Assembly (NCBI GenBank): GCA_964187785.1 | Contig: OZ076409.1 | Coordinates: 78,618,001 to 78,682,000 of the forward strand | From: Amphiscolops sp. MND2022 | Lineage: Eukaryota | Length of the DNA: 64,000 nucleotides | Direction of reading: 5' to 3' | In this document: positions 14,103 to 60,438 of the stretch, in pieces | Numbering within the stretch: the first letter of the stretch is position 1 | Layout of the letters: every line of letters starts with the position of its first letter | Made by a program: the position numbers and the translations under genes | Notes under the pieces: model-generated | What the model was told of the DNA's origin: nothing | The model's database searches: none | The model's input: only the letters and a program-made list of their open reading frames with translations

Positions 14103-14117
14103 TAGAAACTCATTTTT

Positions 14118-14134
14118 TGGCGACCACAGAGGGA
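14118..14134 (+). promoter_or_regulatory. Primer binding site of element D, tRNA-Arg-like (TGGCGACCACAGAGGGA)
   Basis: Resembles the complement of the eukaryotic tRNA-Arg 3' end (TGGCGACCACGAAGGGA); 15 nt downstream of the LTR. Confidence 0.7.
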
Positions 14135-25977: not shown

Positions 25978-26264
25978 CCTGCCCAAAGCTCTTTTCTGTT
26001 GCCCCCTACTTAATTTTTCCACCCCGGTAATTGTCATGTCTGGGAGGAAGTCTTAAACTATCCCATGGAATGATTAACTTGTAATGTATCGTTAAATAAC
26101 TCCTATCTTTATGTTCTAGTTAGTTAGTTGAACTACAATTTACACTTGTTGCGGTTCCCTTATCGAGCCATCTTTGCACCATTGTAACTGGATGATGAGC
26201 CCTAAGCTCTCCCCATAATGCACCTAGTAAGCCTAACGGTAATCCTTTTTAGACCTATGATATA

Positions 26265-31309: not shown

Positions 31310-31329
31310 GCCAGGAGCCTGGGGAGTGA
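31310..31329 (+). promoter_or_regulatory. Polypurine-tract-like sequence of element D
   Basis: ccaggagcctGGGGAGTGA directly precedes the 3' LTR. Confidence 0.65.
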
Positions 31330-37551: not shown

Positions 37552-39297
37552 TGTCGCAGGCTGCCGCCTGTGACGGCACATTAATAACGACGTCAGCGGA
37601 AAACCAAGAATTTGTCCCAGGTACCCTACCCACGTTTTAAACTTTCCCTTACTGAAACTTATTTTACTAGTTAATCACATTCGTTTTGTTTATTCAAGTG
37701 CATTTTTATAATTGTTCGTGATATTAGTCTGTTAAAATTACGATTTGGAACTATCCAAATCAGGTTGTGTTTTGAGATTTGTAAAAGGAAGTTTGGTGTG
37801 TTGCAAATAGAGTGTTGAAATTAATCAAAGCGGTTACGTACAATAAGCAGGTTATTCGCGAGAAGGAAACGTGTTCAAGTAAGAAAACGTCCCTTCTCGG
37901 CGATGTAACTTTCAGTACGATTATTAGCCAATCAGAGCTTTCCTTTTGCTAATTATGAGTGCTTTACTTATGATGGCCGGATATGGCTAATTGACTAAGC
38001 GGTGCTAATTTATATCAGTCCCCCAGTCAAATGGACGGCTTCGGCCAGTTCGAGCATAATGATACCTTTGTTGCCTAATTGGATCAATACTTACGTGGAG
38101 TTATTAAAATCATGTTTTTAGTTTAAATAAATACGTTTGTGATGTTTTGGTGTTTGTATACTTTTAACTTGGATAAAGGGACAGTTAAGGCCTTTTACCA
38201 TGTCTTTCATATGCGCAGTACATGTTATGGATTTGGGCCTATTCCGGCCCTGATATGCGAGTGTATTTTCGTGAATATCGATGCAGTATTAGAATTCCAC
38301 ACATAGTAATGCATTTCGTTTTCAGCTTAATTTGCAGTAAACTTGTGCCGGCACGTGCCTTCATTTTACATTGCCATAAAATATGCAGGCTGTGGTATTT
38401 GTTTACATCACACCTGAAGTAGGCCTAACTGATAAATTGTTTGAAGTTGCTACTTAAAATGATGACTCTGAATACCATTCCTTAAATGTCCCCCGGAAAT
38501 ATGTAGTTGTCGGGGATTTTCCTATGATGATTGTGAAATCCTATGATTTGTCTTGATCAAAGTATGTAAAAAATGTGTGTCATCCTTCAGGGGTATAAAT
38601 ACCCATATCCCTGCAGGAGGACTCATACTTTGTACTTCTCTCCATTTGATAAAGACGTCCATAATACAAACGGTTTCACTGTTAATTTTCCGGAATTGAT
38701 AATTCAAGTCTTCAACCCGGTTCAGTCTTATGCCTACCACAAGAAAGCAAAAGAAAGCAAGGAAATCTAGAGGATTAGAAATTCTCTCTGACATTGAAAA
38801 CCTTGACATAATGTTAGGTGAAAATCACTTCAATGATACGAGGAGAGACGAAAGTCTCGATGGAACTTCCATTAGAAGGCAAGAAAGTATCATAAGTAAT
38901 AACTTGGAAAATGAGGAAATGGATCTCCATTCTGACCATAGAAATCTTGGGGTTGGGACTAGTACCGGGCACGACCGAAATTCAGCAAGTATAGATTCTC
39001 AAGCTGAGATCAATAAGTTGTCAAGTGAATTGAACTCTAGAATATCTAGAGAAATGTATGTAATGATGGACAGTGTTAGTTCTCAGATTCAGAGAGCCAT
39101 AAGTGACGCCATAAATAATCAGGTTTTGCCCCAGATTCAAAACGTCATTATGGCCGGTTCAGGACAGGAGACTAGAAGGGGATGGGAGAGATCTGACGAG
39201 AGACCGGAAAGTTATTCCGAAGTTCAGTGCAACGCGAAAACTAGAACTACCCTCAATAATGAACACGGTGATAAAACAAACCGTAACGTTCATGACA
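37552..39297 (+). repeat. 5' LTR of element B (1746 bp)
   Basis: Direct repeat of 57944-59691; preceded by TSD CTGTT and followed by the PBS. Confidence 0.95.
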
Positions 39298-40424
39298 TGG
39301 TGACAGGAGACAACGAATCTCCAAATCAAGTTCCTGAGTTTCTCACAGGACGAATCTCATCCAGAAATCACCTCGACAGGTCCTTTGAGGACATCAACCT
39401 CGACACGACGATCCCAGCACAAGAGAGAATCACTACGGCTGCTGACTCTGACCCCATCACTCGACTGGCAGACGTCTTGACTTCAATGCAGAATAGACCG
39501 ACAGCCCAACAACTTACCATACGCCCAGTCAACTCAAATACCATGACATTCGATGGCAAAAGCGAAAAATTCGAGCTGTTCGAAGACCTATTTCACTCTA
39601 TGATCAAGATGCAGCCAGAAATGACTGAGCAAATGAAGATCAACCACTTCCACTCTTTATTGAAGAAGAATGCTCTTCAGACATTCAGAAATATCAGCTC
39701 AAGCAACCGACAAACTCTAGAGGACGTATTAGTCATTTTTAGACGAAAATACGTCAAGCCCGTGTCACAGGCGACTGCCAAACATAAATGGCACCGTCTG
39801 GTCTTCGATCCCAATACGATGAAACTGCCTGATTTTCTCGAACAATTAAACCAGGGAGCCGAGAAGGCGTTTGGTGATCATGCGCAGAAAATGATTGACA
39901 GCTTGCTTTATGCAAAACTGCCACCAAAACTGAAGCGGTCCGTCAACATGGCCAGATTAGAAAATGGCTCCTACGATGAGATAGTTGCTCATTTGGAGAG
40001 AGAATTAGAGCTTAACGCCCTCGAGGAGTCAGATGACCTACCAATGGCCACAATGACCTCCTCGACTACAAAATCTAAAACTCCTCTGTCCACTGGGCAA
40101 ATGTCAGACATTACTTGCAATTACTGCAAGGAAAAGGGCCACATGGTCAAGGACTGCAAAAAACTGAAAAAGAAAAAAGAAAAAGATGCCCAACAAGGCA
40201 AGTCGACGCAGAAGAAAACATATCCGGAGTGTGGCACTTGTGGGAAAAAGAACAACCCGGAGGAGAGATGTTGGCAAGGTGCTGGTGCACATCTTAAACC
40301 CAAGCGCACTAGACCTGAGGACTCAACTGACAATAAGCCCAATCCCAAGGCTCAGAAACCTCAGACCAAACCGACATCATCGGGCTCCCAATCCTCATAT
40401 TCTAATGATGAGTCAAAAAACTAA
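38730..40424 (+). CDS. gag: Gag of element B, 564 aa; starts inside the 5' LTR
   Basis: CNYCKEKGHMVKDC and CGTCGKKNNPEERC knuckles; homologous to the A Gag. Confidence 0.93.
   Translation: MPTTRKQKKARKSRGLEILSDIENLDIMLGENHFNDTRRDESLDGTSIRRQESIISNNLENEEMDLHSDHRNLGVGTSTGHDRNSASIDSQAEINKLSSELNSRISREMYVMMDSVSSQIQRAISDAINNQVLPQIQNVIMAGSGQETRRGWERSDERPESYSEVQCNAKTRTTLNNEHGDKTNRNVHDMVTGDNESPNQVPEFLTGRISSRNHLDRSFEDINLDTTIPAQERITTAADSDPITRLADVLTSMQNRPTAQQLTIRPVNSNTMTFDGKSEKFELFEDLFHSMIKMQPEMTEQMKINHFHSLLKKNALQTFRNISSSNRQTLEDVLVIFRRKYVKPVSQATAKHKWHRLVFDPNTMKLPDFLEQLNQGAEKAFGDHAQKMIDSLLYAKLPPKLKRSVNMARLENGSYDEIVAHLERELELNALEESDDLPMATMTSSTTKSKTPLSTGQMSDITCNYCKEKGHMVKDCKKLKKKKEKDAQQGKSTQKKTYPECGTCGKKNNPEERCWQGAGAHLKPKRTRPEDSTDNKPNPKAQKPQTKPTSSGSQSSYSNDESKN
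39298..39309 (+). promoter_or_regulatory. Primer binding site of element B (TGGTGACAGGAG; tRNA identity uncertain, Leu-like)
   Basis: Immediately follows the LTR-terminal CA; absent after the 3' LTR. Confidence 0.85.
40415..40421 (+). promoter_or_regulatory. -1 ribosomal frameshift slippery heptamer A_AAA_AAC (gag-pol)
   Basis: Directly before the gag TAA; the -1 frame is open into pol; identical in element A (941-947). Confidence 0.85.
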
Positions 40425-43400
40425 CTTCGCCACGACTCCAATATAACGAATTAATATCTGTCCGACAGTACATCAGATCGGACCCTCCAACACAGACTTT
40501 CCACCAATACAATCAGCAATTGATGGGCTATCCCTCTGTTGTCTGGCAGCAGCAGATGGAAAAAGCCACCATCATCACTTACAATAACACCCATTTGTTC
40601 CAGAAACCAATTCCTGTTTGGGACCCTGATTACACCACCACCTTCACTACCCGGTTCAGGCCCATTCCCCTGATCGATGACTACAATCCAACATACATCG
40701 ATCCAGACTACAACAGAGATCCCTACTGGGACACCGAGCTTTACAACCAAGATTCACTACAATTTCAATATGTCCTGGACGATATTGAACACTATAATAG
40801 AACAGTCCACGAGAACCCTCCAATTACCCATAACAAGAAAACAAGAGCGCTAATTGAAAACTGGCAAATGAATGATGGCACAAACCATCCAGTGTTCCCA
40901 AACCCATTGGGGACCGAGACCCATGACAGCAATGCTGAACCCATACCACAATCATTGATAGACGAGAAACAGTTCCAAAATGTCTTAATCACTAGAGACG
41001 GTGAACCAGACTGTATACCCCTGTCAACCAACATCAACCTCAAATGCAAAAAACGCATGTTGTATTTCCCAATGGACTTTGGGGAATTGACCATTGACGG
41101 ACTCATTGACACTGGAGCGCTGTCCAGTGCAATTCCTGAAATGGACCTCCGGAAAATTCGACTTTTATCTCCACAATCCGTTATCCGGGAAGGTCCGCCT
41201 CCGAATTTCCAAATCATGGTCGCTAATGGGCAACTGGAAACTCCCAAGAGTACCATAGAGCTCAAATTTGAAGTTGGTGACATTGAATTCCACGAAATTT
41301 TCATAGTAATGGAACACTTGACTGGACCGATTATTGGACTGTTGTTCCTTCAGCGAAACCATACAGTTCTGGATATGCGACAAAGGATACTGAATTTCCC
41401 GTTCTTTTCGATGCAGCTCAAAACGGCTGACCATAAGTATTCAAATGTATTGGAACCAATTCTCAACCCTATTGAGATAACTATTCCACCAAACGATAAA
41501 GTCCTAATTAGGACCAATTCCCTACTCTACCCCGAGAATGCTGTCACTGGAATTTTGCAACCGAGCGACCTTCTACACGAAGAAGGCGACATCACATTTT
41601 GCCCAGCTTTGGTCACTCTGAATGACGGCAATATATTGATATCAGTGAACAATTTCACAGACCACCCTTATAAACTCAAAAAGGGACACCATATTGCCAA
41701 TTTCTCTGTCATGACACCAGAACAGATGAAGTATGTCAAACCGGTAGATCCGGCATCAACCTGGCACCTGTTGCAGAATGACCAGGAGCAAGCAGCCCAT
41801 TACGTCAGCAGTCTCATCAAGTCCAATAGAAATCCGCAAAACTCTGAAAATTATTGGTTCCCAACTCCAGAAAATCCTGGAAATCCTGAGGAACACACAC
41901 CTATACAAAAACGAATCCTACGCGAGTTACAGGCCCTACAGGACTTGGAGACACTCGACCCCACTACAGATGCAGAATCGCGTGCAAAATTCTTAGAAAA
42001 CTTTGACTGGAAAGATTCCACCCTTACTCCTGAAGACAAGGAGAAAATTGAGGAATTGTTAGTGGAATTCCATGACGTCTTTGCACGACACCGATTTGAT
42101 ATAGGCATGAACGAGGAATTCAAAGTGAAACTGACGCCTAAAGACGATTCCCCAGCCTATAGTCAAAGCCTTCCAGCTCCTATCAACTTGAAGGAGGACA
42201 TCCTAGTTGAATTAGCCGTGTTACACAAATATGGTATAATAACCACACTGACATTCTCGAAATATGCAAGTCCAATATTCGCACAAAAGAAGCCGAATGG
42301 GAAACTCCGACTCTTGGTTGACTTGAGAAAAATCAACAACCTCATATCGGATGATTATATCAACAATAATCACCCCGTCAGTACACTAGTTGATGCGCCC
42401 AACACTTGGCAGGCAAAAAACTGTTCTGTAAATTAGACTGTTCGCAGGCATACCACTGCCTACCAATGGCCGACCAACGCTCAATCGAAATGTTGGCTTT
42501 CAATTTTGCCAGTCGCACATTCGCTTACAGACGTTTGGCACAAGGCCTTAGTCGGTCACTATCCGCATTCTCGAGTTTCATGAGAGAATACCTTGACAAA
42601 GTCATTAAAGCGGATCAGTGTGCCCAGTATGTGGACGATATCGGCATTGCAGCCAATGATGTTGACCACCTCATGACGAACCTGAGAGCTACGTTCAAAT
42701 GCATTCAGGAAGCAGGCCTTAAGTTAACAATGCACAAATGTCACTTCGGTGCAAAAGAAATTGATTTTCTCGGACGAACAATTACCCCACAAGGCGTCAA
42801 ACCCCAGAAACAGAACGTGCAAAACTTTCTGGAAAAGACCAAATTCCCGAAGTCGAAAAAGGCTTTACAACGTTATTTGGGATTCCTAAACTACTACAGG
42901 AATTATGTCCCAAGACTCTCCGAACGCCTTGCTCCATTCTACAAGATGCTCAAAAGTGACGAAAAGGTCCTAGTATCGAAAGAATTAGTCCAACAATTCG
43001 AACAAATCAATAAAGCAATAGACAAATGTTGCGACTTGGCCCTACAGCAACCCATTCCAAACAAGCAAATAGCACTAATGACTGATGCAAGCTTTGGTGC
43101 AGCCGGGTACGCGGTCCTAATCGAAGACGACCCAAGCCAGAAATTTACGTCGCTCAGAAAATCGTATGCACCAGTCGCATATGGATCAAAAACTTTCACC
43201 CCAGCACAGATCAAAATGTCAATTTATGCCAAGGAATTCCTTGCAATCTATTTTGCATTCAAAGAATTCGGACATATCTTCTGGGGTGCGCCGAAACCGG
43301 TCATCATCCTTACAGACAACAAAGCTGTCACGAGATTTTTTCAAACAAAAATAATACCCCCAGCCCTGTGGAACGCGTGTGATTATGTCATTCAGTTCAA

Positions 43401-45625
43401 TTTTGTCATAGCACACATCCCAGGGGTACAAAATACAGCTGCCGACTATTTGTCCCGACTGGAAGCAGACCCGAAGGACAAATTGGTGATGAAAATTCGC
43501 GAAGATGTACAAACACTACCAATCGAAATCAATGTCCAATCCGCAGGGGTGTCACAAGAAGAACAAATCTACTACACCAATGACGACGATGAGACATAAG
43601 AACAGTTGTGGGCAAGAAAAGAAGCAATCAGGATAAATCCAGCAACTGATGAGCCCACTGTTACTATACAAACTCTGTCAACAAATCTGGTCAAGCAACA
43701 CCCCGATATACAGGTCCGGTTGAAGAGAACGAACCAGATCATTATCGAGCAATCCAAAGATGCGGTACTACAACAATTGAAAGCAAAACTGCTTCATGAA
43801 GAGTATTCAGAAACTACTGCACCAGGATGCCCGATATAGACATTACGCAAACAATCTGGAACGAATTGTACTAAAGGACGAAATCCTGACAAAACAATAT
43901 TTCGATGAAACAGGGAATGTTAAATACCATCAAATTTTACTCCCGCAACATTTACTTCAGGAACTGCTTAAGTCTCTCCACGGGACAGCACATAAACATC
44001 CTGGGATTTCAAAAATGTTACAGGAAATCCGACAGGGGTATTACTACCCTAGCATGGCTAAACACGTCAAAAAGTGGGTAGAAGGGTGCGAACAATGTGC
44101 CAGAGACAAAAGAGTCCCTAACGCAACGATCACACCTGAGCTGCTCAACTTGCCCGAATGGGACCTTGGACCTGAAGACGCCATGCAAATCGACCTATTG
44201 CCGCATCTTCCCCCAAGTGGAGGGTATGAAAATGTCCTAACAGCAATAGACGTATTTTCCAGATATTTGTTCGCATATCCCCTTACGGACGCATCAGCGA
44301 TCAATGTAGCAAAAGCGCTCATTGACATTATGACTAAACACTCATATCTACCAACGACTCTTATCACTGATAAAGGTACTGCATTTACTTCTACAATTAT
44401 CGCGGAGGTTACGCAGATTTTGGGCATCATACTCAAATGTGCAACGACGAAACACCCGCAGACAATTGGGAAATTGGAGCGAACTCATGCCTCATTGAAA
44501 ACAAATCTCAAGATGGCATGTGGAGAATATCGCCGACAATGGCACAAATACTTGCCATTAGCAGTACTGAATCATAATACTAGTTATCACGCCAGCATCG
44601 GTTGTGAGCCAACGAGAGTATTCCACGGAAGAATTCCATTTAATATTTTGGATCACAAGCTTGGAAATAATTCAAACCAGCAGATTAACCCCACAACCGA
44701 ATTTGCTGAAGAAATCCAAAACCGGACAAAAATCCTGATTGACAAAACGAAACAGAACATTATGCAGTCGTATATTAAGTACAAAGAATATTACGACCGC
44801 AAAGCAAAAGCCGCTCCACTAAAGGAGAACGAATACTGTTTTGTCTTACAGCCGAAAGCGGATAATCAAGGATCAAAAATTCCATTCCGCGATTACCGTT
44901 GGGTGGGACCATTTGTAGTCCAAAAAGTTTTGCCAAATGAAAACTATATAGTACGACGGATCAATACGAACAAAACTCAAATTTTGCATCGCATTCGTCT
45001 TAAGAAGTTTGTCCCCAATCAACCGCTTGAGGATAATTTCCGAGAACAACAGTTGCAGCCAGATGAAGAAATTGCCATTCCGCAAGATGATTTATACGTC
45101 ATAACGTGGGAAACCGACTTTGGCGAGCAACTAGTTACACGAGGCAACGAGACTATTCCGACCAGCATGCCGAATGGCGAACAGCCGAATGCGCCAGAAG
45201 CGAATACAAATGACGTAGCCGAGAACGAAGCGGATTACATAATCACGAGTGACGAAACAAGTTACGCTGACCACGCGGCGCGGAGCCGGAATAAAAGATT
45301 AAATCATGACGTCACAAAAAAGAATGAAGCTAGTGAAGCGGCTAGCAATGACAAATCTGATTGGCCGAATCCGGCCGTTTCCCCAAAAAATCAAGAAAAA
45401 ACTTTGCCGAATACGGATGAAAGACCAAAAAATGATGAAATTCCCTCAGAAAGAAATTTGACGAATGAAAACGACGCACAAAATTCTCCAAAAAGGGGGG
45501 ATGATATTATCGTGCCCGAAATATCTGAAAGCGATGCTAGAAATGAGAGTCTGAGCCCTAGAGGAGGGAAACATAATCTCAGACCTAACCCCAACCCAAA
45601 CTACTCAGAAGACTACAGATACTAG
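40421..45625 (+). pseudogene. pol: Pol of element B: protease, dUTPase-like spacer, RT, RNase H and integrase (frameshifts near 42395 and 43810, stop at 43597)
   Basis: GLIDTGA, LRLLVDLRKIN, QYVDDIGI, MTDAS, AADYLSR, LHGTAHKHPG..CEQC, TDKG, LERTH. Confidence 0.94.
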
Positions 45626-48600
45626 AGAAAATTAAATTCGGTTCAGGAATTAGCCCTGAACTGTTCTGCTTTTCCTCTTTTATTTTCTTTTGTATCAGTC
45701 CCATACAGCAGTATCTTTTGAATAAATAATGGGACGTATGAAAGATCCCTCACAAAGGAAATAACCCGGGATCAAGAAATCAAAAGAAGGAAATGTATAT
45801 AAATAAGGCAACAAATGAAACAGAAAATGAACAAAGTTTACAGTCTTGGTGTACACATATACATATGTACAATTAGTCTTTAGTAACGCTAGACTGAGGA
45901 GATACAGTAGCAGAAGAAGCAGAGGACCGAGACGCCCTACGTTCCATCTTCCTTCGTTTCTTACTACTAGGGGCCTTTACAGCAGGATCATCAGCGACAG
46001 AACCAGCATCCCCGGAGTCAATTTGGACAGAGATTCTCTCTGGAGTAGATGACGCAATGCGGCAGGAAGCCAACAAGGACTTGTAAATTTTTGAGCGCCC
46101 AAAGGTGTCAACATATGTCCAGGGGTCATATTCTTCAGCAAAAGCGGAACGTCCAAAGGAAGAAGATAGAAGGGAAAAGCTAGCCAAGTTGTCATCATTA
46201 CTACAGAAAGGCACGGAATCACGGACATTGGCAAGATAACTTTGGCAAGGGAGAATGACATCGGTGAAGCGATTCTGACGACCCGCAGTGGTAACTGTGC
46301 CAAACGTAACGTCAGGAAGTGCTAAACTCACAGAGGTTGCACATAGACAGCACAGCTTGAATAAGTGGAACAAGTGCGCCCGGTCCTGCAAGAACTCAAG
46401 TCCAACCAGGAACTCTATCAGATCTGAGGAGGTACTAGTCAGATCGAAATTGGGGCCATAACTAGTCCGTAAGTGGTCCAGTAGCTGCATGTACTGGTCC
46501 CGGCACAGAGACTCATTGGCACTTGGGACCCAAGAACGGAGGGCAAAGGTGTTATACAGCATGTCAAAATGCTTCAGAGCAACGTCCATCGGCCTTTTAA
46601 ACATGATGAATGGGTCGAAAGCAGCCAACCCCTTTGCTATGTTGCTTGTCGTCCCAACTCGTTTGAGGACCTCATTGATGAGGAACTGCACATACTGCTG
46701 GCTGTCCTTGACGAAGGCTGTTTTTACCGTCCCTGCGGTGGCCTGTATGGCTGGACGCTCAGACTTCTTTCCAAAGTGGATGCCCCCTGCTCGAGCCCTG
46801 CTAGCTGTCCCTACGCGATTAGACAATTTGAGCCTGACCAGGTAATCATCTTCAGCCAGGAATGTCCCTTCACTGGTCTGGAATCGGAGGAGCAAGAACC
46901 AGGCACTCTCTAAGGGAACTGTATCTGGAGTGTAGACCCGGGAACAGAGCAGGCTGACGAATCGACTGACTTCCCCACAGAGATAGAATGAGGCGTCACG
47001 CCTATACTGCAGATTCACAGCGAAACTAGTGACATCTAGAAACACAAAATAATGCCCAAATACGAAATGTAACCTTACACAACCTCCCCGTCGAAATATA
47101 CTCACAGTCACTGACGAGCTTGCGGAAGAATTCCAGTTTGACGACAAAGAATTCGTCACAAATCAAGGACCATTCGAAGCTCTGCACCTGGAATGAAAGA
47201 TCACCCTTACTACGGCGCATAAAGTCTGAAGGACAAACAAGGACTAGGGAAACCCCTTATGAATAAGCCTGTCTAACTGGAATAATACGTATGAATCAAC
47301 AGAAAGCTAACCCTGTTGCGAGATCCTTGGCCTTCCTGCAGGGGAGCGTGTGCCGTCAGATAGCGTAGCACTGACTTCCACTCATCTAACAATGCATGGC
47401 AAAGAGTGGGCAAGGTCTTGACCTCGAGCTGACAAGTGGTGATAGCCTGTAAACCCACATGGCCAGATGAACTTTGAATATTAGATCCTGAGACTCGCTA
47501 CCCCCATCTCTTTCACCAATTAGAACCACAAAAGAAAGGAAATGTGCCATTGGATTACTTACCCTAATGAGTTCCGGATGACGCATCACCCAATCTTCGA
47601 CAAGGGAACCACCCAGACTGACCATCAGGGCTTGCAACACCGAGAAGAAGTCTATGTGCCCAAACACGGAGTAGCTCGTCTTATGCATGAGTCTTGCCAG
47701 CGAAAGGTGCTCAAAACGGAAACAACTCTGGACTCCTTGGGTGAAGTACTCTGACTGGTCGATCGTTTTGGCGAATTCAACTGGGCACCCTGAGCATGCG
47801 ACCATATCGGGCCGTGTGGAAACTGCTGACAGGAATCGAGCTAGTGACCCCAGTTCCCCAGTCACATCAGTCGCGGGAAGAGAACTTCGGCAGACGTAGA
47901 CCCTACAGAGCTCTAGCTGCTTCCAGTATTTGACTGACATGCATTGGTTGGAACCAATCGTCTGGAATTCGACTGAGAAGCACTGTTGAGTGGACACTTG
48001 CTCAGCGATGTCGTGTAGTGCACAGATGAAGAAGTGCTGGAATATGACCTGAAACGGAACCTAAACCTCAGTACAGGGTAAAGTTCGGAAGAAACATTGA
48101 GGCTTAAAAGACACTACTTACAGTGAGGCGTTCTTCCCCCCAATCGAAATCAGTCACTGTGGCTTGATGGTTGGTGAATGACCCCATCCGTGACCATAAG
48201 TTTCTCAATACCATCATGTCTCCTTGGGTTTTCGCAAAGTCTCCCACGAGACAGAGTTGAGTTTTGGCTCTGGATTCTGCTGTGACCAGTGCTGTGGTGG
48301 AGCCCTTGATGTAGTCATCATAAAAGGGGAACCGTTCCCCGATGTCCACCAGTTCTTCATTGATGAAATGAGGGAGTGCCTTTGCCAGCTCCATTTTACT
48401 CAAGATCTTCCCATTGGCTCCTCGGACTCTATGTTGCACCTTACCCGTGACAGGATCCGTGCTTCGCAGTGCTCATACCGCCAACGCTGGTCGCGGCGTA
48501 AATGCCGTTGGGTGCGATGATGTCTAAGGATTTCATACGGGCCTTTCGATCTGATAGAAAAGTTCTTTTTACAAATGTGGCACCAGACCATCAAAGGATT

Positions 48601-48911
48601 GTGGACAGGATCGGCAGGTCCTGAGATGAAAGATCTGGTCCAACCTATTTTTTTGAAGAACTCCTCTTTCATGGGGACTCCCCGTCGTGAGGGCCTCCGG
48701 TCATTTTTCCGTTTTTTGGGCCTGGAGGTGGTCCGTGCCGTGGTCCGAGTTTGCTCCCTCAACTCCTGTAGGGTGGTGTCTTGACTGCTGAACTCTGATG
48801 TGTCCGGCTCATTCTGTTGCTGACCAGAAGAAGGTTGGGCTTCGGTTGAAACTTGCAGTGGGGCGGCAGGGTTTTTGAAGGACCGAGTTATTAGGTCCAT
48901 CTCTGTGGCAC

Positions 48912-49830
48912 TGTAACGGCTGCTTGCCCTTATCCTGCGCTGAGGCTTGACAAGCTTTACGCCGCCCTGATCCGTTGCTTAGTGCTGTGGACCGTCACTA
49001 AACAATTCCTGGTTTCTTATTTTAAAGGACTGTATCTTTTGACTGGTGGGTCCGATGTGACCCGTGGAATCTCCTGCGATTCCTCTGTTCACTGAATTGG
49101 ATCCGATGTGATCCTGCACACACTTCCCTCACTGTATCTTCACGCGCTCCGGCTCTCCAACTATGAGAGTAGCTACTTAGTCGCTCTAACTCTAGCGAAA
49201 AGTTGTGAAGATTGAGAAGTTGATTATTAAGTCTTGCGGTCCTGAGACCCAACTTGACTATAGCTATTCAGTGGAGAAAATCTCTATCTAATAATAGTAT
49301 ACATATCGTTTACAATTCTACAGTAAATATAAGCAAATATCAGTTAAAATATGTTGTATAAATAAATGACATTTAAGTGAATTATTAAAGTTATTGGCTA
49401 TGTAAACAAAGCACATGGTGGTTTTGGCATGTTGGTTAGGTGGGTTAGAAAGTATGTTTACACTATGTAAACATTATCAATTCAACAGAGTTACATTCTA
49501 ATGTGGTCATATAGGTAAATAACAAAGTTTACATTTTTGGTTCAATGACCTTGAATACTACACATGTGAGGGGTAAAGGGGGTTATAATGGGGGAATGAA
49601 CTTGAAACTTAGCCGGTGTGTTCGTGTTAGGTATCTGCGTATGTGTGCCAAGTTTCAAGTCTCTACGGTTATTAGTTGCAGAGAAAACCCTGACTGGGGG
49701 GGTTTTTCGATTTTGTGACGATTGACTTCTCTTCAAATTTTCATCTAAGTTTTTAGGAGTTTAAGTTCTCGTATCTCAACCAACATGTTCTGAATCGAGT
49801 TTCTCTGCCTTCTGATGACTGGCGCCAACA
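48912..49830 (-). repeat. 3' LTR of element C
   Basis: Direct repeat of 54062-54980. Confidence 0.95.
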
Positions 49831-50203
49831 TTGCCGGCCCTGTTTTTCTCCTGAAAAACACTTTCGTAGAACATGGGTGCCAGTTTCACTACTGGTCTTT
49901 TGAGTTTGTCATCGATTGTCGTTGTCGTTTTGAGATCTCCAGGTTCATTGTCATGTTTGACGGTTAATTACCCTGTTCTTTTTCTGCTGCAACAAAATCC
50001 CAAACCATATTCCTGTTCGCTGACCATAAGGTAGTTTTCGGCAAGTTCACATAACACATCCAAATATTTCCAAAAACAGTTTTGCTCATTTGAAGGCGTG
50101 GTTTTCCCAATTATTACAAACTTCATCGTCAATGTCTGACATTCTTCGTGTTCAATCAATTGCTTTCTTTTAGAACCTTTAAAAGGTATGATACAACCAT
50201 GCT

Positions 50204-53158
50204 TCATTTCATTTGACTTAGCTCCCATCGACATCCAAAGAATATGTTCCCAGAATAAGTCGAGAACATCTCCAGCCAGTTTCCCAATATCTGCTTTGCT
50301 TCGCAATTCATCATCAAAATTGACTGACCTCGGGGGAGATATGTCAAACTGATTTCATTCTCTAATATTTCCATAATCTTGATCTGGATCTGCCGTTCTT
50401 GAAATGTACTTGAATCAACAATTATCATAATCAGTAGATAAAGAGAATTTCCAACATTACGACAGTTGAAGTTCTCCCGTTTGTTTTCGGTGTTCTTTGT
50501 GCAACTAAAGAAAAATTTGCGTTCGGAACTCAGTTGCTGCGCTTCATTTTGCTTCTTCCCTTCTGACACGTCGTATTCCGTGTCTACATCCATGTTTTCT
50601 TCCAATAACTGCAATGCTTTGGAGTTTCGCTTTCGCTTGTGTTTGTAGAACGTCACCCAGCTTCTCTCACCACAAAACTCCAACTTCTTAGCGTCTGGGT
50701 TTCTACGAGGCTCCACTAGATCATAGGAAACTTCCAATTTTCCAAAAGTCCCATTCTGAGTCCACATTGTCTTGAATGGTGCAGCCGGCCTTTTGCAAGA
50801 CCCACCGCTCCAACTTTCTGTTGTTGGTACTTCCAATGAACACATTTGCGTTCTTGTCACTGATGATTTGTCTATCAGATCAAACCAAACTGTGTCCTTT
50901 TGTATTCCATTCTCGTTCAACTGAGTTCCTTCCGTCATTCCATGAATCAGGTTTGAGAGGGGTTCAATTTTCCAAGCTCTTTTCTTCGGTCGCTTGCGGT
51001 GACCTTTGCTCAATTGAGTTTCAACAATCCCGTTAGCCTGTGCCACCGCATCCATCCCAGAGTTCCCATTTCCAATCCAAAGGTTCCAAACATTATTCTT
51101 ACTCGGGATAGTATCTTCAACAAAGCTTACTTTGAAGTCAAAATGAAATTTCTTTCCAAACGATGTATTCATGGCTTGTGTTTCACCTTCATTGCCTTTC
51201 ACGGGTTTGTCATGTTTCATTGCAACGTGGCATAGCTGTTGACACATGACTTCTTCATTCAAACTTTTTTGCAGTGCAAATTGCTGCTCATTCACAAATC
51301 CATAACTTTTGACAAAATCAAAGCATTTTTTGTTTCCTTCTTCAAGAAGTAGGGTACTGTCATGAAACATCGTCACTTCGAATAATTTCCCTTGTTGTAC
51401 GTCATGTTGTACAGTGATAACTTCTGCACTCTCTAGCAGCAGTTCCAATTGCACACTCAATTCTTTTGAAGATTGTTTGCCTAATGAGAATGTTAAGCTT
51501 CTATGCTCTTTCCTTGTTTCCGTCATTGTGTACTTCAAGTTCTGCTCCCTTAGCACTATGGAATGATCACTAATGACCAAGTGAATCTCTTCTTCCACAA
51601 CGTGTTTGGTATCCACGAGGAGAGTTTCTGAACGGAAGTCTTGCCGACCATTGTCTACAATGATTGTTTCTGACCAGTTTTGTATGCTTTCCGCTTTGGG
51701 GAGCTTCGAGATTCCTTTGTTTCCAACGTTCACTTCTGGTTGTGATGTTGCTCCTTTCACGTATGCTCCTTTATCAGCTTTTGTTCTATTTCCCCAATCA
51801 ACTCGCTCATCGGCTTTTGTGAGAGATTTTGAGTCCCTCATAGGTGCGGAGAACTTTCCTTCGTGAGCTAATTTCACTGCATTCTCTAATTTCGAGTGTG
51901 CTGATACTGCAATATTGGACTTAGTCCCATTCTCGGCTGTTTCTGTTTTGTCTGTCCATCTTGAGTCTTCTGTGAAACTCTCGACTGATGCAATACTTTG
52001 GAAGCTAGTCCCCTGGCTGCACGTCGCTTCCGCTATTTGTCTTTCTTTTTCAGCTATTCTAGCTTTGCGGGCAAGCTCTTCATGCAAGTCTGCTATTTCT
52101 CTTTCAATTGCTTCGCGCTTCAGTTTCTTCAGTCGAGTTTGTAGTTCTTCTTGCTCCTTCTGAGCTTTTGCTTTCGAATAAAATACTCGTCTAGCACTTG
52201 AAGTTTTCGAAATCACTGAGCTTCTGTTGCTTCTTATTTCAGCCAGTTGTGGATGTTTGCCCAGTTCCTCTATTTGTAATGATTCAAGCTCACTTCTTTG
52301 GACTGGGAATTCATCCGACTTCTGATCCTCCGCTTTCATCATTGTTTGGAGAACCGAACGCTCTTCATTAGACTCCTTCGAGCTAACTGTTGCTCTGTTG
52401 TCCATCTGGATTTGTCGATCTGTTTTGTCAGACACCTTAACCTTTTCTTCGGGTAGTGATGTCTCATCGTTGACTGGGTTTTCCATTTCAGATACGCTGT
52501 CTCCCTTGACACAGCAAGGTTCTTGTTCATTGGTCCTTCTTGACCGCGTCAGTGATTCCTTTTCACTAGCAGTTTTCTTTAAACAGCTTTGTTTTGCCTG
52601 ATGGACACGACTTTGCCTCAATTTTCTTGTTCGAGGGCATCTCATAGCAGCGTCTGTAGACGTTCTATTTGCCACCTGGCTCTGTTTCAACGCGGTTGTC
52701 CCGTCAATTGGACACTTTAAGATTTGCTTCACATCGGGGAACCAGTATCCCCAACTCAATTCCATTTTCACAAAGCATTCTTCCCATTCAGTCACACTTC
52801 GACTTAGCTGTCTTTGCGTTTCTTCATTTGTAAGACCCAACATAAAGTCTACACAAAACAGTAACGCTTGTCTTCTGTCGCGGTATTCAATTACCCAATC
52901 AATCAAGTTGCTTCTGGATACAACAGCTTCTTTCTCATCGAGCTTGTCATCCAAGTCTTTTACTAACGTATGGAGCTTTTCCACATGTAGGGGTACAATA
53001 TTCCAATAGAGGCTCCACGCGTACCAATCTGACGCATTCATCAAATCTTTTGGTGTGAGTTCCATCAGTGTTTGACTCTGCTTTGTGTTTCTTTCTTCAA
53101 ACACTTTTGTCATTCGAGGGTGCTTCATCATTTGACTTTCCTTCTTTCTGGCATTCAT
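50204..53158 (-). CDS. 984-aa ORF of element C; Gag-like coiled-coil region but no recognisable RT/RH/IN catalytic motifs
   Basis: Uninterrupted 2955-nt ORF; the SVISKTSSARR..KAKAQKEQEELQ..coiled-coil segment resembles a BEL Gag N-terminus. Confidence 0.6.
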   Translation of the reverse strand: MNARKKESQMMKHPRMTKVFEERNTKQSQTLMELTPKDLMNASDWYAWSLYWNIVPLHVEKLHTLVKDLDDKLDEKEAVVSRSNLIDWVIEYRDRRQALLFCVDFMLGLTNEETQRQLSRSVTEWEECFVKMELSWGYWFPDVKQILKCPIDGTTALKQSQVANRTSTDAAMRCPRTRKLRQSRVHQAKQSCLKKTASEKESLTRSRRTNEQEPCCVKGDSVSEMENPVNDETSLPEEKVKVSDKTDRQIQMDNRATVSSKESNEERSVLQTMMKAEDQKSDEFPVQRSELESLQIEELGKHPQLAEIRSNRSSVISKTSSARRVFYSKAKAQKEQEELQTRLKKLKREAIEREIADLHEELARKARIAEKERQIAEATCSQGTSFQSIASVESFTEDSRWTDKTETAENGTKSNIAVSAHSKLENAVKLAHEGKFSAPMRDSKSLTKADERVDWGNRTKADKGAYVKGATSQPEVNVGNKGISKLPKAESIQNWSETIIVDNGRQDFRSETLLVDTKHVVEEEIHLVISDHSIVLREQNLKYTMTETRKEHRSLTFSLGKQSSKELSVQLELLLESAEVITVQHDVQQGKLFEVTMFHDSTLLLEEGNKKCFDFVKSYGFVNEQQFALQKSLNEEVMCQQLCHVAMKHDKPVKGNEGETQAMNTSFGKKFHFDFKVSFVEDTIPSKNNVWNLWIGNGNSGMDAVAQANGIVETQLSKGHRKRPKKRAWKIEPLSNLIHGMTEGTQLNENGIQKDTVWFDLIDKSSVTRTQMCSLEVPTTESWSGGSCKRPAAPFKTMWTQNGTFGKLEVSYDLVEPRRNPDAKKLEFCGERSWVTFYKHKRKRNSKALQLLEENMDVDTEYDVSEGKKQNEAQQLSSERKFFFSCTKNTENKRENFNCRNVGNSLYLLIMIIVDSSTFQERQIQIKIMEILENEISLTYLPRGQSILMMNCEAKQILGNWLEMFSTYSGNIFFGCRWELSQMK

Positions 53159-53529
53159 TTGTTCAGATGACTCTTTTGTTTCACTGGGGGCTTTCGATCT
53201 TCACAATTTTTTCTTGTACTCTTTGTCACTTTTCCCAACTCTGCAATTTCTCAGATACAAAGCGTCAACTGCTCAATCCGGTAATCAATCGTCAATTCTT
53301 GAAGAATCAACACAATACTGTCGATTATACTTGCCTTCTTTGACAAACTTGATTGTCTCGGTGGATCTTGTCCCTCTGACTTGATCCCTTTTCTTTACTT
53401 GGTGGATTTACTTGCAATGACGTCTCAGACCAAGTCTTTGCTTCAATCAGGAGCACGTGTCCAAAGAATACAATTCGTCTCAAAACTAGAATAGATGCAC
53501 AAATACTTTCAGAGTGTCGCTAAGCCCAA

Positions 53530-53853
53530 CTCCCAGAGTACACAATAGTCCCAACTCCAGAGTCACTATAGCCCAAACACCCAGAGTCACAATAGCCCAA
53601 GCTCCCAGAGTCACAATAGCCCAAGCTCCCAGAGTCACAATTGCACAAGCTCCCAGAGTCACAATTGTCAGCACTCCCAGAGTCACAATAGCACAATCGC
53701 CCATACACACATTGGCACAATCGCCTGATACACAGCTGCACAATCGCCAAATACACAGTGGCACAATCGCCCAATTACACAGTGGCACAATCGCCTGATT
53801 ACACAGTGGCACAATCGCCTGATACACAGTGGCACAATCGCCTGATACACAGT
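53530..53853. repeat. Two adjoining 23-24 bp tandem arrays in the 5' leader of element C
   Basis: (cccagagtcacaatagcccaagct)n grading into (tacacagtggcacaatcgcctga[t])n. Confidence 0.9.
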
Positions 53854-53944
53854 GGTCCAAGCTCTCAGAGCTAGACACTTGCTCTTCTAGGGCAATCTTC
53901 TTCAGTTGTCCACCAACGAGTCGTCTTCGTCCTCGTCTTCTTCT

Positions 53945-54059
53945 TGTCCGGGTCGTCCACCAACGAGTTGTCCGGGTCGTCCACCAACGAGTTGTCCGGG
54001 TCGTCCACCAACGAGTTGTCCGGGTCGGCCACCAACGAGTTGTCCGGGTCGGCGGACCA
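53945..54059 (-). repeat. PBS of element C (54043-54059) and four tandem 24-bp PBS-derived copies
   Basis: Unit tggtgg(a/c)cgacccggacaactcgt repeated; the first unit is the PBS, 2 nt from the LTR. Confidence 0.85.
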
Positions 54060-54061
54060 AA

Positions 54062-54980
54062 TGTAACGGCTGCTTGCCCTTATCCTGCGCTGAGGCTTGA
54101 CAAGCTTTACGCCGCCCTGATCCGTTGCTTAGTGCTGTGGACCGTCACTAAACAATTCCTGGTTTCTTATTTTAAAGGACTGTATCTTTTGACTGGTGGG
54201 TCCGATGTGACCCGTGGAATCTCCTGCGATTCCTCTGTTCACTGAATTGGATCCGATGTGATCCTGCACACACTTCCCTCACTGTATCTTCACGCGCTCC
54301 GGCTCTCCAACTATGAGAGTAGCTACTTAGTCGCTCTAACTCTAGCGAAAAGTTGTGAAGATTGAGAAGTTGATTATTAAGTCTTGCGGTCCTGAGACCC
54401 AACTTGACTATAGCTATTCAGTGGAGAAAATCTCTATCTAATAATAGTATACATATCGTTTACAATTCTACAGTAAATATAAGCAAATATCAGTTAAAAT
54501 ATGTTGTATAAATAAATGACATTTAAGTGAATTATTAAAGTTATTGGCTATGTAAACAAAGCACATGGTGGTTTTGGCATGTTGGTTAGGTGGGTTAGAA
54601 AGTATGTTTACACTATGTAAACATTATCAATTCAACAGAGTTACATTCTAATGTGGTCATATAGGTAAATAACAAAGTTTACATTTTTGGTTCAATGACC
54701 TTGAATACTACACATGTGAGGGGTAAAGGAGGTTATAATGGGGGAATGAACTTGAAACTTAGCCGGTGTGTTCGTGTTAGGTATCTGCGTATGTGTGCCA
54801 AGTTTCAAGTCTCTACGGTTATTAGTTGCAGAGAAAACCCTGACTGGGGGGGTTTTTCGATTTTGTGACGATTGACTTCTCTTCAAATTTTCATCTAAGT
54901 TTTTAGGAGTTTAAGTTCTCGTATCTCAACCAACATGTTCTGAATCGAGTTTCTCTGCCTTCTGATGACTGGCGCCAACA
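54062..54980 (-). repeat. 5' LTR of element C
   Basis: Direct repeat of 48912-49830; followed on the minus strand by the PBS. Confidence 0.95.
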
Positions 54981-57246
54981 GGCACTGTCGCTCTCCTCAT
55001 AATAAGATGACTCCCCAGTGCCCTCTGAAGATGAGTCAAGTTGGCGTGTAGTAGTTGCTGTTCCTTCTCCTTCGGATTCCGTCCCACTTGAATCGCTAGA
55101 AACTCTGCGCATGGGGGTCTGACAACGACCCTTGGAAAGGAAATGAGCGGTGCGGGAAGGGACGACGGTGGGAGAACCCCGAACAGCGTCAATAACCATT
55201 CGCTCCATGGTAGAAAATGACCGGTTGAGCGTCTCATCAGTCAAAACCCTGAGAAGGTGGTATATTTGAGGCTCAGTGAAGGCAACGGTGGAATGCCCCA
55301 CAGGAAGACGGACGGGGGCGGCTTCATCAAAATACTCCTTCAAAATTGCCCTACTTCGCCCGGAGAGGTCTGGAGGCCTACTTTGGGTAGGTTGTGCTCG
55401 GGGTGCAAGGTCCTTGCTTGTTCCAGGAATCAGCATCTCGGAACTTGTATCATCTCCGCCTTCAGTTCCCGACTCAGGGTGAAAGGGGTTAAAGCCATAC
55501 AAGGCAACAGGATTCACTTGGCTGACTTCATCGGCAGTTTTCTCCTCATCACTCTGTCCCCCTAGGAAGTGGACATGAGGTGCCATTCCAGGCAGAGCGG
55601 GCACGTCACAGATTGATGAAGCATTCTCATCGTCCGTTCTGGAAGGAGCCCCGCTAATGTTGGCCATCTCAGGGTCAGTTCTGTCCCGCAACTCTGGTAG
55701 CTGAGACTCAGATGTCACGATAATTTGGAGTGCCGACTCTAAGGCTGACAAATCAGCTTGACAGGGCTCTTCATCTTCCTCGGACATGATGGGGGTACTT
55801 GACCTCCGGACCGCGGGGTCATCGGATGTTGCCGGAGTAGCTTCAACGGTTGGAGGAATTTCGGCGTTCGTACCAGAGGGCGAACCGCCCACTTGTTGTG
55901 GGGCAGATTCTTGGTGTCGTTCCATCTTCTGGACCATAGCTTCGGCATATGCAGTGACGTCAGTGCTGCTGCCCTGACTGTTGATGGGACTGTCTTTCTC
56001 AATAGTTGCTGGAGACAGGCCAGCATTGTCTACTTGAGGCCTTGCAGGATCAGAAGATGAACCTTCTGGATTGGCATGGACACTGGCTTAGGGACGTGGT
56101 TGGCTCGAGAGCATTCTTTTTCGGAAGATTTTCTAAACGAAAGGGAATGAAATTTAGCGGTGTACTTCCTTGATATGAATCCATTTTACCGCGATTAGAA
56201 ACCTTCCGGAAGTGTCTGACAAATTCCAATGAAACGTGTTATCACGTGTTTAGTGATGGAAACAGGAAGTGTATTTTGAACAAATTTGACCCTGATCAAG
56301 TTAAATGAGTTCTAAAATGAAAATCCAAACCAACCTGAGTCAGAAGACATGTCGCTGGGGGTCTGATCTGCTAAACGCTGGTCCAAGCGGGAACGATTGC
56401 TGGAAACTGGGGAAATGGTCGGGTATGGCAAGAAAGGAAGAGATTACTCCGACGAAGAAAGAAATACAGCTAAGACGGGGATAAGAATGGGGTAAATGTT
56501 GACGAAGCAAATCCAAAGTGGAAGGAACAAATGAAATATAAATAGAATTGAAATGGAATTAAAATTGGGTTAAGAATTGAAGAAATTGGAAAGTTGGAGT
56601 TCGTGGCTGAAGATTATTACCAGACTAATATTATGGATTATCTACACATTTATTCTGTACATGGAGTCTGCCAGCGAAGTGTACAAAGAACTTTGTTATT
56701 TACAGCTTATTTAGTTAAAAGCCAGTTATGGCCGTTTGCCCTGTTTTGTTTTGTCGTTTCGTCCAGTTGCCCTAGTTACCCTTAGTTAGAATTTTCGCCA
56801 TCTTGGATTATTCAGATTTATTATTTTCGCCATTTTTATTATTTAATTCTACAATTTATCGAAGCTTAACGCTGATTGGATGAAGCCATTACGAGAAATT
56901 TTGGTGACGCGTGCCGCTAATTGCTTACAAGCGGCCCGTTAATTACCCACTTGAGACGGGTGTAGTTGATATTCATAAGTCGAGCGTCATTCACACCTCT
57001 TCTAGTGATGACACTGATGAGGAGTAAACATCAGGTTATCAAAGGGAGCCGACTTATCAAGGATTTCCATTCAGAAAAGTTTACGACGGATCGGGACGAT
57101 TAACCTAAGGTTCTCCCGCCGAACTGGAAAGTTCGGGAAAAGGCCTGATTCGGCTAAATTCTTAAAACTGTCAAATTCATTCTACTGCAAACTTCTCTTC
57201 AATACAGTCACTACGAATAGCTTCAAAAATAGCAAAAAAGATAATC

Positions 57247-58032
57247 ATGAGCAAATACAACTTAGCTAGAAAATTGTTCGAGCTGGAGGCATACGACTCA
57301 GATGATTCTGAAAGATCAGCAATATACATTTCCAGCAGTGAGGAAGAGTCATCAGACTGGGAAACCGACTGCTCCACAGACACGGAGCAACTTATTGCAA
57401 GAATCGAAAGGGAAGTCACCTCCAGCCTCATGCTAATTGGGGGTCGCATAATGACTATGGAGGAACCTTCAGGAGACGAACCAGAAGCTGGCCCCAGTTC
57501 TTCCCAGATGCGAACAGATGTGACTCCGAAACTTGACCACAGGTACTTTGACCAGGAGATGTGTTATGCTCCCCCAAAGAAGTTGCGAAAGTCAAGGATA
57601 GAGGTTTGCAAGACTCTATTGCCAGTGCCAGAGTCACCCATGTCACCGCCCGACCATGAGAGAGGGCCAAGTTTGGACTCCCCCCTGATGCAGCCTACAA
57701 TGGGTGGTTTTCACGCGTCGTTCCACGTACAGAACACAAGGCCGTACGAGGACGTGAGCAACAAACTGTATTCTGGCTGTATGGTGTGTGGCAGATCCTC
57801 AGAAGCAATAAAGAAAGAGAAAGTAGAATGGTATGTTGCAAGGTCCAAGCCACGAGGAGAGCCTGAGTACATCACGAAAATCAGAAGAGAAGCATATGAG
57901 AACGGTCTCAACGCCGGGGCATTCCTCTTCATAACACCCGCAGTGTCGCAGGCTGCCGCCTATGACGGCACATTAATAACGACGTCAGCGGAAAACCAAG
58001 AATTTGTCCCAGGTACCCTACCCACGTTTTAA
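57247..58032 (+). CDS. 261-aa accessory ORF of element B (acidic N-terminus, CxxC motif) ending inside the 3' LTR
   Basis: Intact ATG-TAA ORF; the last ~29 codons lie in the LTR and have a protein-level homologue at the start of LTR A. Confidence 0.75.
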   Translation: MSKYNLARKLFELEAYDSDDSERSAIYISSSEEESSDWETDCSTDTEQLIARIEREVTSSLMLIGGRIMTMEEPSGDEPEAGPSSSQMRTDVTPKLDHRYFDQEMCYAPPKKLRKSRIEVCKTLLPVPESPMSPPDHERGPSLDSPLMQPTMGGFHASFHVQNTRPYEDVSNKLYSGCMVCGRSSEAIKKEKVEWYVARSKPRGEPEYITKIRREAYENGLNAGAFLFITPAVSQAAAYDGTLITTSAENQEFVPGTLPTF

Positions 58033-59691
58033 ATTTTCCCTTACTGAAACCTATTTTACTAGTTAATCACATTCGTTTTGTTTATTCAAGTGCATTTTTA
58101 TAATTGTTCGTGATATTAGTCTGTTAAAATTACGATTTGGAACTATCCAAATCAGGTTGTGTTTTGAGATTTGTAAAAGGAAGTTTGGTGTGTTGCAAAT
58201 AGAGTGTTGAAATTAATCGAAGCGGTTACGTACAATAAGCAGGTTAATCGCGAGAAGGAAACGTGTTCAAGTAAGAAAACGTCCCTTCTCGGCGATGTAA
58301 CTTTCAGTACGATTATTAGCCAATCAGAGCTTTCCTTTTGCTAATTATGAGTGCTTTACTTATGATGGCCGGATATGGCTAATTGACTAAGCGGTGCTAA
58401 TTTATATCAGTCCCCCAGTCAAATGGACGGCTTCGGCCAGTTCGAGCATAATGATACCTTTGTTGCCTAATTGGATCAATACTTACGCGGAGTTATTAAA
58501 ATCATGTTTTAGTTTAAATAAATACGTTTGTGATGTTTTGGTGTTTGTATACTTTTAACTTGGATAAAGGGACACTTAAGGCCTTTTACCATGTCTTTCA
58601 TATGCGCAGTACATGTTATGGATTTGGGCCTATTCCGGCCCTGATATGCGAGTGTATTTTCGTGAATATCGATGCAGTATTAGAATTCCACACATAGTAA
58701 TGCATTTCGTTTTCAGCTTAATTTGCAGTAAACTTGTGCCGGCACGTGCCTTCATTTTACATTGCCATAAAATATGCAGGCTGTGGTATTTGTTTACATC
58801 ACACCTGAAGTAGGCCTAACTGATAAATTGTTTGAAGTTGCTACTTAAAATGATGACTCTGAATACCATTCCTCAAATGTCCCCCGGAAATATGTAGTTG
58901 TCGGGGATTTTCCTATGATGATTGTAAAATCCTATGATTTGTCTTGATCAAAGTATGTAAAAAATGTGTGTGTCATCCTTCAGGGGTATAAATACCCATA
59001 TCCCTGCAGGAGGACTCATACTTTGTACTTCTCTCCATTTGATAAAGACGTCCATAATACAAACGGTTTCACTGTTAATTTTCCGGAATTGACAATTCAA
59101 GTCTTCAACCCGGTTCAGTCTTAATGCCTACCACAAGAAAGCAAAAGAAAGCAAGGAAATCTAGAGGATTAGAAATTCTCTCTGACATTGAAAACCTTGA
59201 CATAATGTTAGGTGAAAATTACTTCAATGATACGAGGAGAGACGAAAGTCTCGATGGAACTTCCATTAGAAGGCAAAAAAGTATCATAAGTAATAACTTG
59301 GAAAATGAGGAAATGGATCTCCATTCTGACCATAGAAATCTTGGGGTTGGGACTAGTACCGGGCACGACCGAAATTCAGCAAGTATAGATTCTCAAGCTG
59401 AGATCAATAAGTTGTCAAGTGAATTGAACTCTAGAATATCTAGAGAAATGGATGTAATGATGGACAGTGTTAGTTCTCAGATTCAGAGAGCCATAAGTGA
59501 CGCCATAAATAATCAGGTTTTGCCCCAGATTCAAAACGTCATTATGGCCGGTTCAGGACAGGAGACTAGAAGGGGATGGGAGAGATCTGGCGAGAGACCG
59601 GAAAGTTATTCCGAAGTTCAGTGCAACGCGAAAACTAGAACTACCCTCAATAATGAACACGGTGATAAAACAAACCGTAACGTTCATGACA
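57944..59691 (+). repeat. 3' LTR of element B (1748 bp), including a copy of the gag N-terminus (59124-59691)
   Basis: Direct repeat of the 5' LTR; followed by TSD CTGTT. Confidence 0.95.
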
Positions 59692-60438
59692 CTGTTCACT
59701 CCGTCGATAGTTAAGATGGGCGCTTCCCAAGCAGGCGGCCGTCGGTTTGATGTCTGGCGAGGACTAAATATCTTTGTTTGCGAACCTTGAGATGGCGAAG
59801 GGTCCCCCTTAGTGTTTCTTGGCAATGGCCGACTTTTTTTTACAAGAAATCTTCTTTCATCAGTCTGGATATTTTTTTGATATTTTCGATGAGAGTAGGG
59901 CGTTTTCGAGGCGGCAGGTAGTCCCTTCGAATATTTTTTACCACCCTGAATATTAAAAAATTTTTTCAAAAGCCACTCTGAGCATTTCTATGACACTTTG
60001 CACTTTTTGAGCTTTAAGACCTTTAGACCGTCCCATCTTGTGAATCATAAACTGCTTTTTATTAACGTCGATACTAGGTTATCAGTGTACAACATGTTCT
60101 AAAGAAAAGTTTCCACTAATAATAAATTCAAATGTTTGAAAAAATTTATACGAAAAAGTTGAGTCTACATTCAATAATGATTTCTTTTTAAACTGTTCGG
60201 AAGTGGCAAAAAGAAAACTTGCATCAAAGCAAATTAAACTGAAATCGGCTGGCATCTGAATAGTTTGTATTCAAATTTCTGATTTCCTCGTTCGTCGCAA
60301 TTTTTCTGAATACAGTACGGATGATATGATCCGACAACATCAATCTTAGAGGTCACTTTCAACATGTGGAATATGCACATGTTATCAATCTTGTTAGTAA
60401 AATTTCAACAGCAGAATTTTCAGTTGCTCCTGGACTTT

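Follow-up and report, generated by a model that had tools for sequence, protein, structure and literature searches.

How antisense accessory genes of retrotransposons with long terminal repeats (LTRs) arose, and what they do, is a standing question. The closest described examples are the antisense aORFs of the plant elements Retand and Grande, which have the same position and orientation as the gene reported here and occur in nearly all copies; in Grande the aORF has its own internal promoter, and a nuclear or DNA-binding role has been proposed. According to a 2020 review the plant aORFs are without similarity to other transposable elements and no donor has been found, and the word "intron" is absent from the text of the Retand paper. 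Here we describe a 64,000-nt stretch (OZ076409.1, positions 78,618,001-78,682,000; hereafter the window, in whose positions all coordinates are given) in which an LTR retrotransposon of Ty3/gypsy domain order carries an antisense gene with five predicted exons, encoding about 1284 amino acids. This gene is of the known kind represented by the plant aORFs, and differs from them in its host group (an animal-type genome), its introns, its recognisable probable donor and its pairing, head-to-head, with a second accessory gene; the TRP28 domain (PF04195) of the Retand and Grande aORFs gave no match in this element. The probable donor visible here comes from another transposon class, that is, a class II enzyme would have been domesticated by a class I element and not by a host. 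A literature search across mainly non-subscription papers met no LTR retrotransposon described as carrying an antisense, hAT-like gene with several introns; an entry in repeat databases or supplements is possible. The antisense gene is real, conserved and, apparently, undescribed.

With the hAT transposases (Hermes) and with hAT genes that have been domesticated (ZBED, ZMYM1/THAP12-like, DAYSLEEPER) the predicted protein appears to share a BED-like finger, an RNase H-like strand pattern, a helical insertion and a C-terminal region, in the same order. In contrast to them, the antisense gene has no DDE or CxxH motifs, no terminal inverted repeats (TIRs) and no 8-bp target site duplication (TSD), and whereas domesticated hAT genes are fixed by their hosts, this one is kept by a retrotransposon at thousands of candidate loci. 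VANC of the Arabidopsis VANDAL elements is, in the available portions of PMC5735166, PMC6719617 and PMC13547354, an element-encoded accessory protein associated with family-specific motifs in non-coding element DNA, an arrangement that we propose here as well, for a motif present in clades A and C only. In the same portions VANC is MAIN-related and has its targets in fast-evolving tandem arrays, whereas in the present elements each promoter has a single motif, which is stable across a clade; VANC-like anti-silencing is here a proposal. CERV of C. elegans Cer1 (PMC10309623, in part) and the bdelloid ORF3 captures (PMC5408684, in part) are conserved accessory genes of animal LTR retrotransposons, and CERV, whose source is a spliced Cer1 mRNA, functions in the export of RNA; in those parts neither is described as antisense, intron-retaining or transposase-like. 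The comparisons also draw on parts of PMC7264820, PMC11963269 and PMC9911081.

The antisense gene is an integral cargo of its element family, as an earlier reading of the window (the sequence-only reading) had supposed. A first look at the 1.07-Gb genome with exon 5 gave 6,990-8,919 loci per query, which are candidates and not copy numbers, about 100 being scored per query. In all 40 copies that were fetched, picked for diversity by exon-5 similarity, pol lies directly downstream on the opposite strand, and 39 of them have all exons, the remaining one (C3_60.2) having lost exon 1 by a deletion. A long LTR pair (93-100% identical) was present in 18 of the 20 copies fetched with 20 kb, the other two showing a tandem duplication and an interrupted LTR. 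Integrase was adjacent in the opposite sense at 29 of the 30 nearest loci, and the position of the gene was identical in 42/42 elements examined. Since these copies had been selected by the gene itself, one reverse test was made with an element known only by its gag at the left edge of the window: it proved to be complete (LTRs 99.7% identical) and to carry an antisense gene 39% identical to the window copy. Outside the elements, one lone exon-5 locus (L016) was the sole copy seen. The gene tree and the integrase tree gave the same three clades, A (with the window copy), B and C, in the 39 elements having both. Three relatives from the database show matches of only 31-42% to this genome, and the family therefore probably extends to other organisms. 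Some elements also contain tandem duplications, either a 4.8-kb one of the accessory cassette or a 1.8-kb one of a segment spanning the end of pol and exon 5, at L047/L048 (C6:33.77 Mb) and L015/L020/L021 (C5:60.77 Mb).

The four introns proposed by the sequence-only reading were all reproduced in their coordinates, splice sites and phases (0,0,0,1). With a spliced aligner, the codon and phase of introns 1 to 4 coincided in 40, 40, 35 and 37 of 41 copies, and five near-misses occurred at introns 3 and 4. Intron lengths range from 65 to 192 nt, with 114/152 not a multiple of three, and GTAAGT, GTTAGT and GTGAGT together make up 96/152 donor sites. In five elements one or two introns are precisely missing and the frame reads straight through the predicted junctions; intron 3 is likewise precisely missing in the left-edge element. 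Four database proteins (P0009, P0033, P0098 and P0076) are continuous across the junctions, as judged by eye. Conserved placement and exact losses together establish, at the level of sequence, the predicted five-exon structure. Exon 2 comprises 162 codons in 18 of 19 copies measured and 163 in one.

That antisense introns survive retrotransposition is what established mechanism predicts, and the introns would be kept here since the gene is oriented against the genomic RNA; the exact losses may reflect recombination with cDNA of spliced mRNA. Spliceosomal introns kept through reverse transcription with sporadic exact losses amount to a natural antisense-intron retrotransposition reporter.

Other parts of the sequence-only reading had to be revised. 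It began the gene at 56114 (~1260 codons); the start is now placed at the ATG at 56184, which opens a conserved MD(S/F)xxGSxPxxFI peptide in 36 of the 39 copies having exon 1 and gives ~1284 codons. The interval that had been given (45873-56114) is mostly occupied by a nested 6.07-kb LTR element, which splits exon 1. The window copy has no single open frame: it is a pseudogene, with two frameshifts in exon 1 (near 56090 and near 48470) and the nested insertion.

Ratios of nonsynonymous to synonymous substitution (dN/dS) were calculated by NG86 over a 765-codon core, where 757/820 pairs were saturated and the pairs are not independent. Median dN/dS of the antisense gene was 0.095 (5 pairs, dS 0.1-0.3), 0.088 (6 pairs, dS 0.3-1.0) and 0.073 (8 pairs, dS 1.0-2.5), as compared to 0.077, 0.055 and 0.044 for integrase in the same bins. 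These values, around 0.08 and far below 1 as had been anticipated, indicate purifying selection on the antisense gene. The core reading frame is open in 23 of 41 copies, and the 13 youngest pairs have a dN/dS of 0.66, as expected from decay after insertion. The comparisons further indicate that modules are exchanged between elements: of 28 pairs with integrase dS <0.15, 15 have antisense genes less than 70% identical. Within clades the antisense gene and the LTR reassort, and tight co-evolution of gene and LTR was looked for and not found.

The BED-like finger, the FSVEFQT..SVKYW strand pair and the basic KKRRK tail that had been pointed out in the protein are all present. In the finger CxxC..H is conserved; hhalign to a BED-bearing alignment gave E = 0.011, and of the Pfam models the C2H2 model alone matched, below threshold. 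The RNase H-like core reached 0.93 to hAT RNase-like clusters in the atlas search, with profile E-values of 0.02-0.05 versus 0.11 for reversed controls. The atlas and the fold search independently indicate hAT, with regions in the correct chain order, and on these two moderate lines the proposed resemblance to hAT transposases stands, while hhalign tests of it did not bear it out (see below). The antisense gene probably has hAT ancestry. By motif register against the hAT pattern, the first Asp position is E30/A7/V2/Q1 and the second S33/T7, and the CxxH and SxxxER motifs are absent; the catalytic motifs have, by this alignment, been lost, in agreement with the missing catalytic Asp noted earlier. 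No inverted repeat pair brackets the gene, which, together with its fixed position in 42 elements, bears out the reported absence of TIRs.

Several searches returned nothing for the protein: the atlas with exon 2 alone (no usable match), Foldseek against PDB and BFVD (nothing significant), sequence searches of PDB, and a word-indexed protein search among longer proteins. The single-sequence fold was of low confidence (pLDDT 35.5), a metagenome scan gave 216 pattern matches with 0 confirmed, and PF14291 had no match anywhere in the genome, controls included. The hAT transposases present in this genome were considered as donors and are not close.

A clade-specific motif is common to the LTR and the predicted internal promoter, lying directly after a conserved anchor in the internal region and as its reverse complement in the LTR. 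CAGACTAAT occurs in both places in 24/24 clade-A elements, 0/7 of clade B and 0/5 of clade C. TTGGTGTC(A/C)AAT does so in 3/5 clade-C elements (the other two are without one of the regions) and in 0 clade-A elements; this C motif was first met in the LTR of the left-edge element, from which an internal copy was predicted and then found. In clade B, some members have a partial match of 8 nt at best. As related elements are not independent, these counts measure conservation and not 24 separate events. There is one motif copy per promoter, tandem arrays being absent, and one copy lies 170 nt from the LTR end.

In the explanation that we favour, a Ty3/gypsy lineage would long ago have taken up, as DNA and in antisense, a transposase gene of hAT type or a hAT gene that was domesticated already, and an internal divergent promoter would drive this gene and the second small accessory open reading frame (ORF). 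The protein would have lost catalysis, retained its zinc finger, transposase scaffold and basic tail, and acquired a long disordered arm with the conserved N-terminal peptide. As a nuclear, sequence-specific DNA-binding factor acting on its own family, it would bind the clade-specific motif in the LTR promoter and the internal promoter, so that the element is activated or shielded from silencing; the two inverted sites might be bridged by it, as hAT oligomers bridge ends (PMC10368747, in part). We give roughly even weight for and against such an element-encoded nuclear regulator, binding the shared motif and promoting or protecting transcription of the family. The motif fits it, but a host factor could bind the motif instead. 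A tentative and rather doubtful extension has the dead hAT protein treating the two inverted motifs as transposon ends, looping them and licensing transcription, with a head-to-head SUMO-binding partner disarming host silencing; such a two-gene module, swapped between elements, may explain a lineage filling the genome. The failed profile tests, together with introns compatible with a captured host gene and TAAT/AATT motif cores that we take to resemble homeodomain sites, would also suit a gene that is real and selected but not usefully transposase-derived, or a captured host ZBED/ZMYM-like transcription factor, with a host factor binding the motif; this is unlikely given the independent hAT indications in the correct order along the chain, and the lone locus L016 as the one copy outside elements.

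On the genomic RNA the copies of the motif are complementary to each other and stand on either side of the position of the polypurine tract (PPT), which is missing in all 24 clade-A elements and present in all 14 of clades B and C. These features, with the precedent of CERV (PMC10309623, in part), would agree with a protein that acts post-transcriptionally on element RNA or cDNA, like CERV or retroviral Rev, in export, reverse transcription (plus-strand priming) or nuclear entry, the inverted motifs being RNA or cDNA structure. Clade C, however, has the purine tract and the motif pair together, the recurrent motif mismatch is no wobble pair, and BED fingers bind double-stranded DNA repeats (PMC10368747, in part), and we hold this no likelier than host-factor capture. 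Alternatively, a dead transposase might use its finger and an oligomeric scaffold to tether the pre-integration complex to preferred chromatin: the scaffolds of hAT proteins form oligomers and bridge the ends of DNA (PMC10368747, in part), one motif copy lies close to the LTR end, and elements in this window insert into or near each other. Yet an end-binding factor has no obvious use for the second motif copy in the internal promoter, and the TSDs are 5 bp, as for integrase, which makes targeting somewhat less likely again. The pseudogene state of the window copy and the frequency of nested insertions in the window would suit a nested DNA transposon or chance passenger, but this is very improbable, since the gene keeps its position in 42/42 elements across saturated synonymous divergence, with dN/dS ~0.08, no TIRs and no catalytic triad. 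With candidate loci in the thousands, motifs specific to clades and modules that can be swapped, a possible animal counterpart of sequence-specific anti-silencing can be put directly to the test, with compact DNA-binding or chromatin-opening tools as a possible yield.

Between the pol stop (45625) and the 3' LTR, the minus-strand gene stands head-to-head with the plus-strand accessory ORF (57247-58032), which the sequence-only reading had overlooked. The C-terminal motif of this ORF is found in 38/41 elements, its CxxC domain is conserved, and it overlaps the start of the 3' LTR, its final ~28 codons being the beginning of each LTR. A hydrophobic-acidic motif resembling a SUMO-interacting motif (SIM) occurs in 25/25 copies with an open frame of at least 250 aa, as a post hoc pattern with no control. 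The non-coding blocks between the two genes, presumably ETS, YY1 and CCAAT sites, are kept across clades with saturated synonymous sites (10-mers in up to 17/26 elements versus 3-5 in shuffles). GAATCCATTTT was rejected as a promoter motif, being the start codon context.

The outer element (37552-59691), found by self-comparison, has LTRs of 1749 nt (99.0% identical) with TG..CA ends and the TSD CTGTT; paired LTRs with such ends and a TSD of 4-6 bp identify it as an LTR retrotransposon. Its domain order is gag, then protease, reverse transcriptase (RT), RNase H and integrase, and pol of the window copy is split over three frames. Since gag begins within the LTR, ~190 of its codons are contained in each LTR (38730-39297, 59124-59691), and the primer-binding site (PBS) lies within the gag frame. 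An (A/G)GGGGAG purine tract precedes the 3' LTR in 14/14 clade B/C elements and is absent in 24/24 of clade A, where, as in the window (57926-57943), a pyrimidine run ending in CAG and coded by the sense ORF stands at the PPT position. Several clade-A elements without the tract nevertheless have LTR pairs 98-99% identical, and the window copy has a TSD. A sense-strand AATAAA lies just 3' of the pol stop (window 45626-45872) in 32/35 elements (shuffles: mean 13.7, maximum 18), with no enrichment on the antisense strand (9/35 versus 7.6 in shuffles); it may be an internal poly(A) site which genomic RNA must read through, or reflect U-rich signals of the antisense mRNA. A TGTACA palindrome adjoins the antisense-gene stop. 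Feature positions are collected in Table 1.

Table 1. Predicted features of the outer element, its antisense gene and related elements (window positions).
Feature	Position	Strand	Remark
Left TSD CTGTT, 5 bp	37547..37551	+	right copy 59692-59696
5' LTR, 1.75 kb, TG..CA	37552..39297	+	holds first ~190 gag codons
Clade-A motif, 5' LTR copy	37721..37735	-	inverted relative to internal copy
gag: DUF1759, CCHC knuckle	38730..40424	+	
PBS-like TGGTGACAG, TGG-starting	begins 39298	+	directly after 5' LTR
pol: protease, weak dUTPase-like stretch, RT, RNase H, integrase	40412..45625	+	
Exon 5: hAT-like helical insertion/C-terminal region, then the basic KKRRK tail and the stop	45873..47035	-	
Intron 4, phase 1	47036..47105	-	
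Exon 4	47106..47187	-	
Intron 3, phase 0	47188..47311	-	
Exon 3	47312..47446	-	
Intron 2, phase 0	47447..47562	-	
Exon 2: RNase H-like core that has not retained the acidic catalytic positions	47563..48048	-	
Intron 1, phase 0	48049..48121	-	
Exon 1, 3' part: C2H2 finger of BED-like type (about 48503-48585), then conserved domain	48122..48911	-	
Nested unrelated LTR element, 919-nt LTRs 99.9% identical, TSD GGCAC (48907-48911, 54981-54985)	48912..54980	-	outside the system
Exon 1, 5' part: start codon 56184 opening the conserved N-terminal peptide, and a long stretch of low complexity that holds one conserved block	54986..56184	-	
Internal divergent promoter region, conserved non-coding blocks CTTCCGGAAG, CTGATCAAG, AAAATGGCG, CCAAT	56185..57246	.	
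Clade-A motif TTACCAGACTAATAT, internal copy	56617..56631	+	
Second accessory ORF: acidic protein of 261 aa with a SIM-like IYISS-acidic motif and a C-terminal CxxC domain	57247..58032	+	extends into 3' LTR
3' LTR	57944..59691	+	ACACCCGCAG directly upstream, no purine tract
Clade-A motif, 3' LTR copy	58113..58127	-	inverted
Clade-C relative, complete, LTRs 99.7%, gene without intron 3	1-3642 and L158/L159	-	

The nested element is very young and holds one 998-aa ORF without a Pfam match, no pol, and tandem 24-nt repeats after the PBS; its ends resemble those of BEL/Pao elements, and it is probably non-autonomous. Elsewhere in the window, a second, unrelated gypsy element (13375-32058; 18.7 kb, LTRs 99.2% identical) has, following integrase, ~6 kb of additional coding sequence in the sense direction; one ORF in it, of 993 aa, matches nothing in Pfam and is not similar to the antisense gene. 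A satellite of about 11 copies of 179-nt units lies at 8655-10717. A 138-nt inverted repeat pair (96%), resembling a miniature inverted-repeat transposable element, and a minus-strand gag-like N-terminal ORF suggesting another LTR were found at 60439-61142 and 63173-63613.

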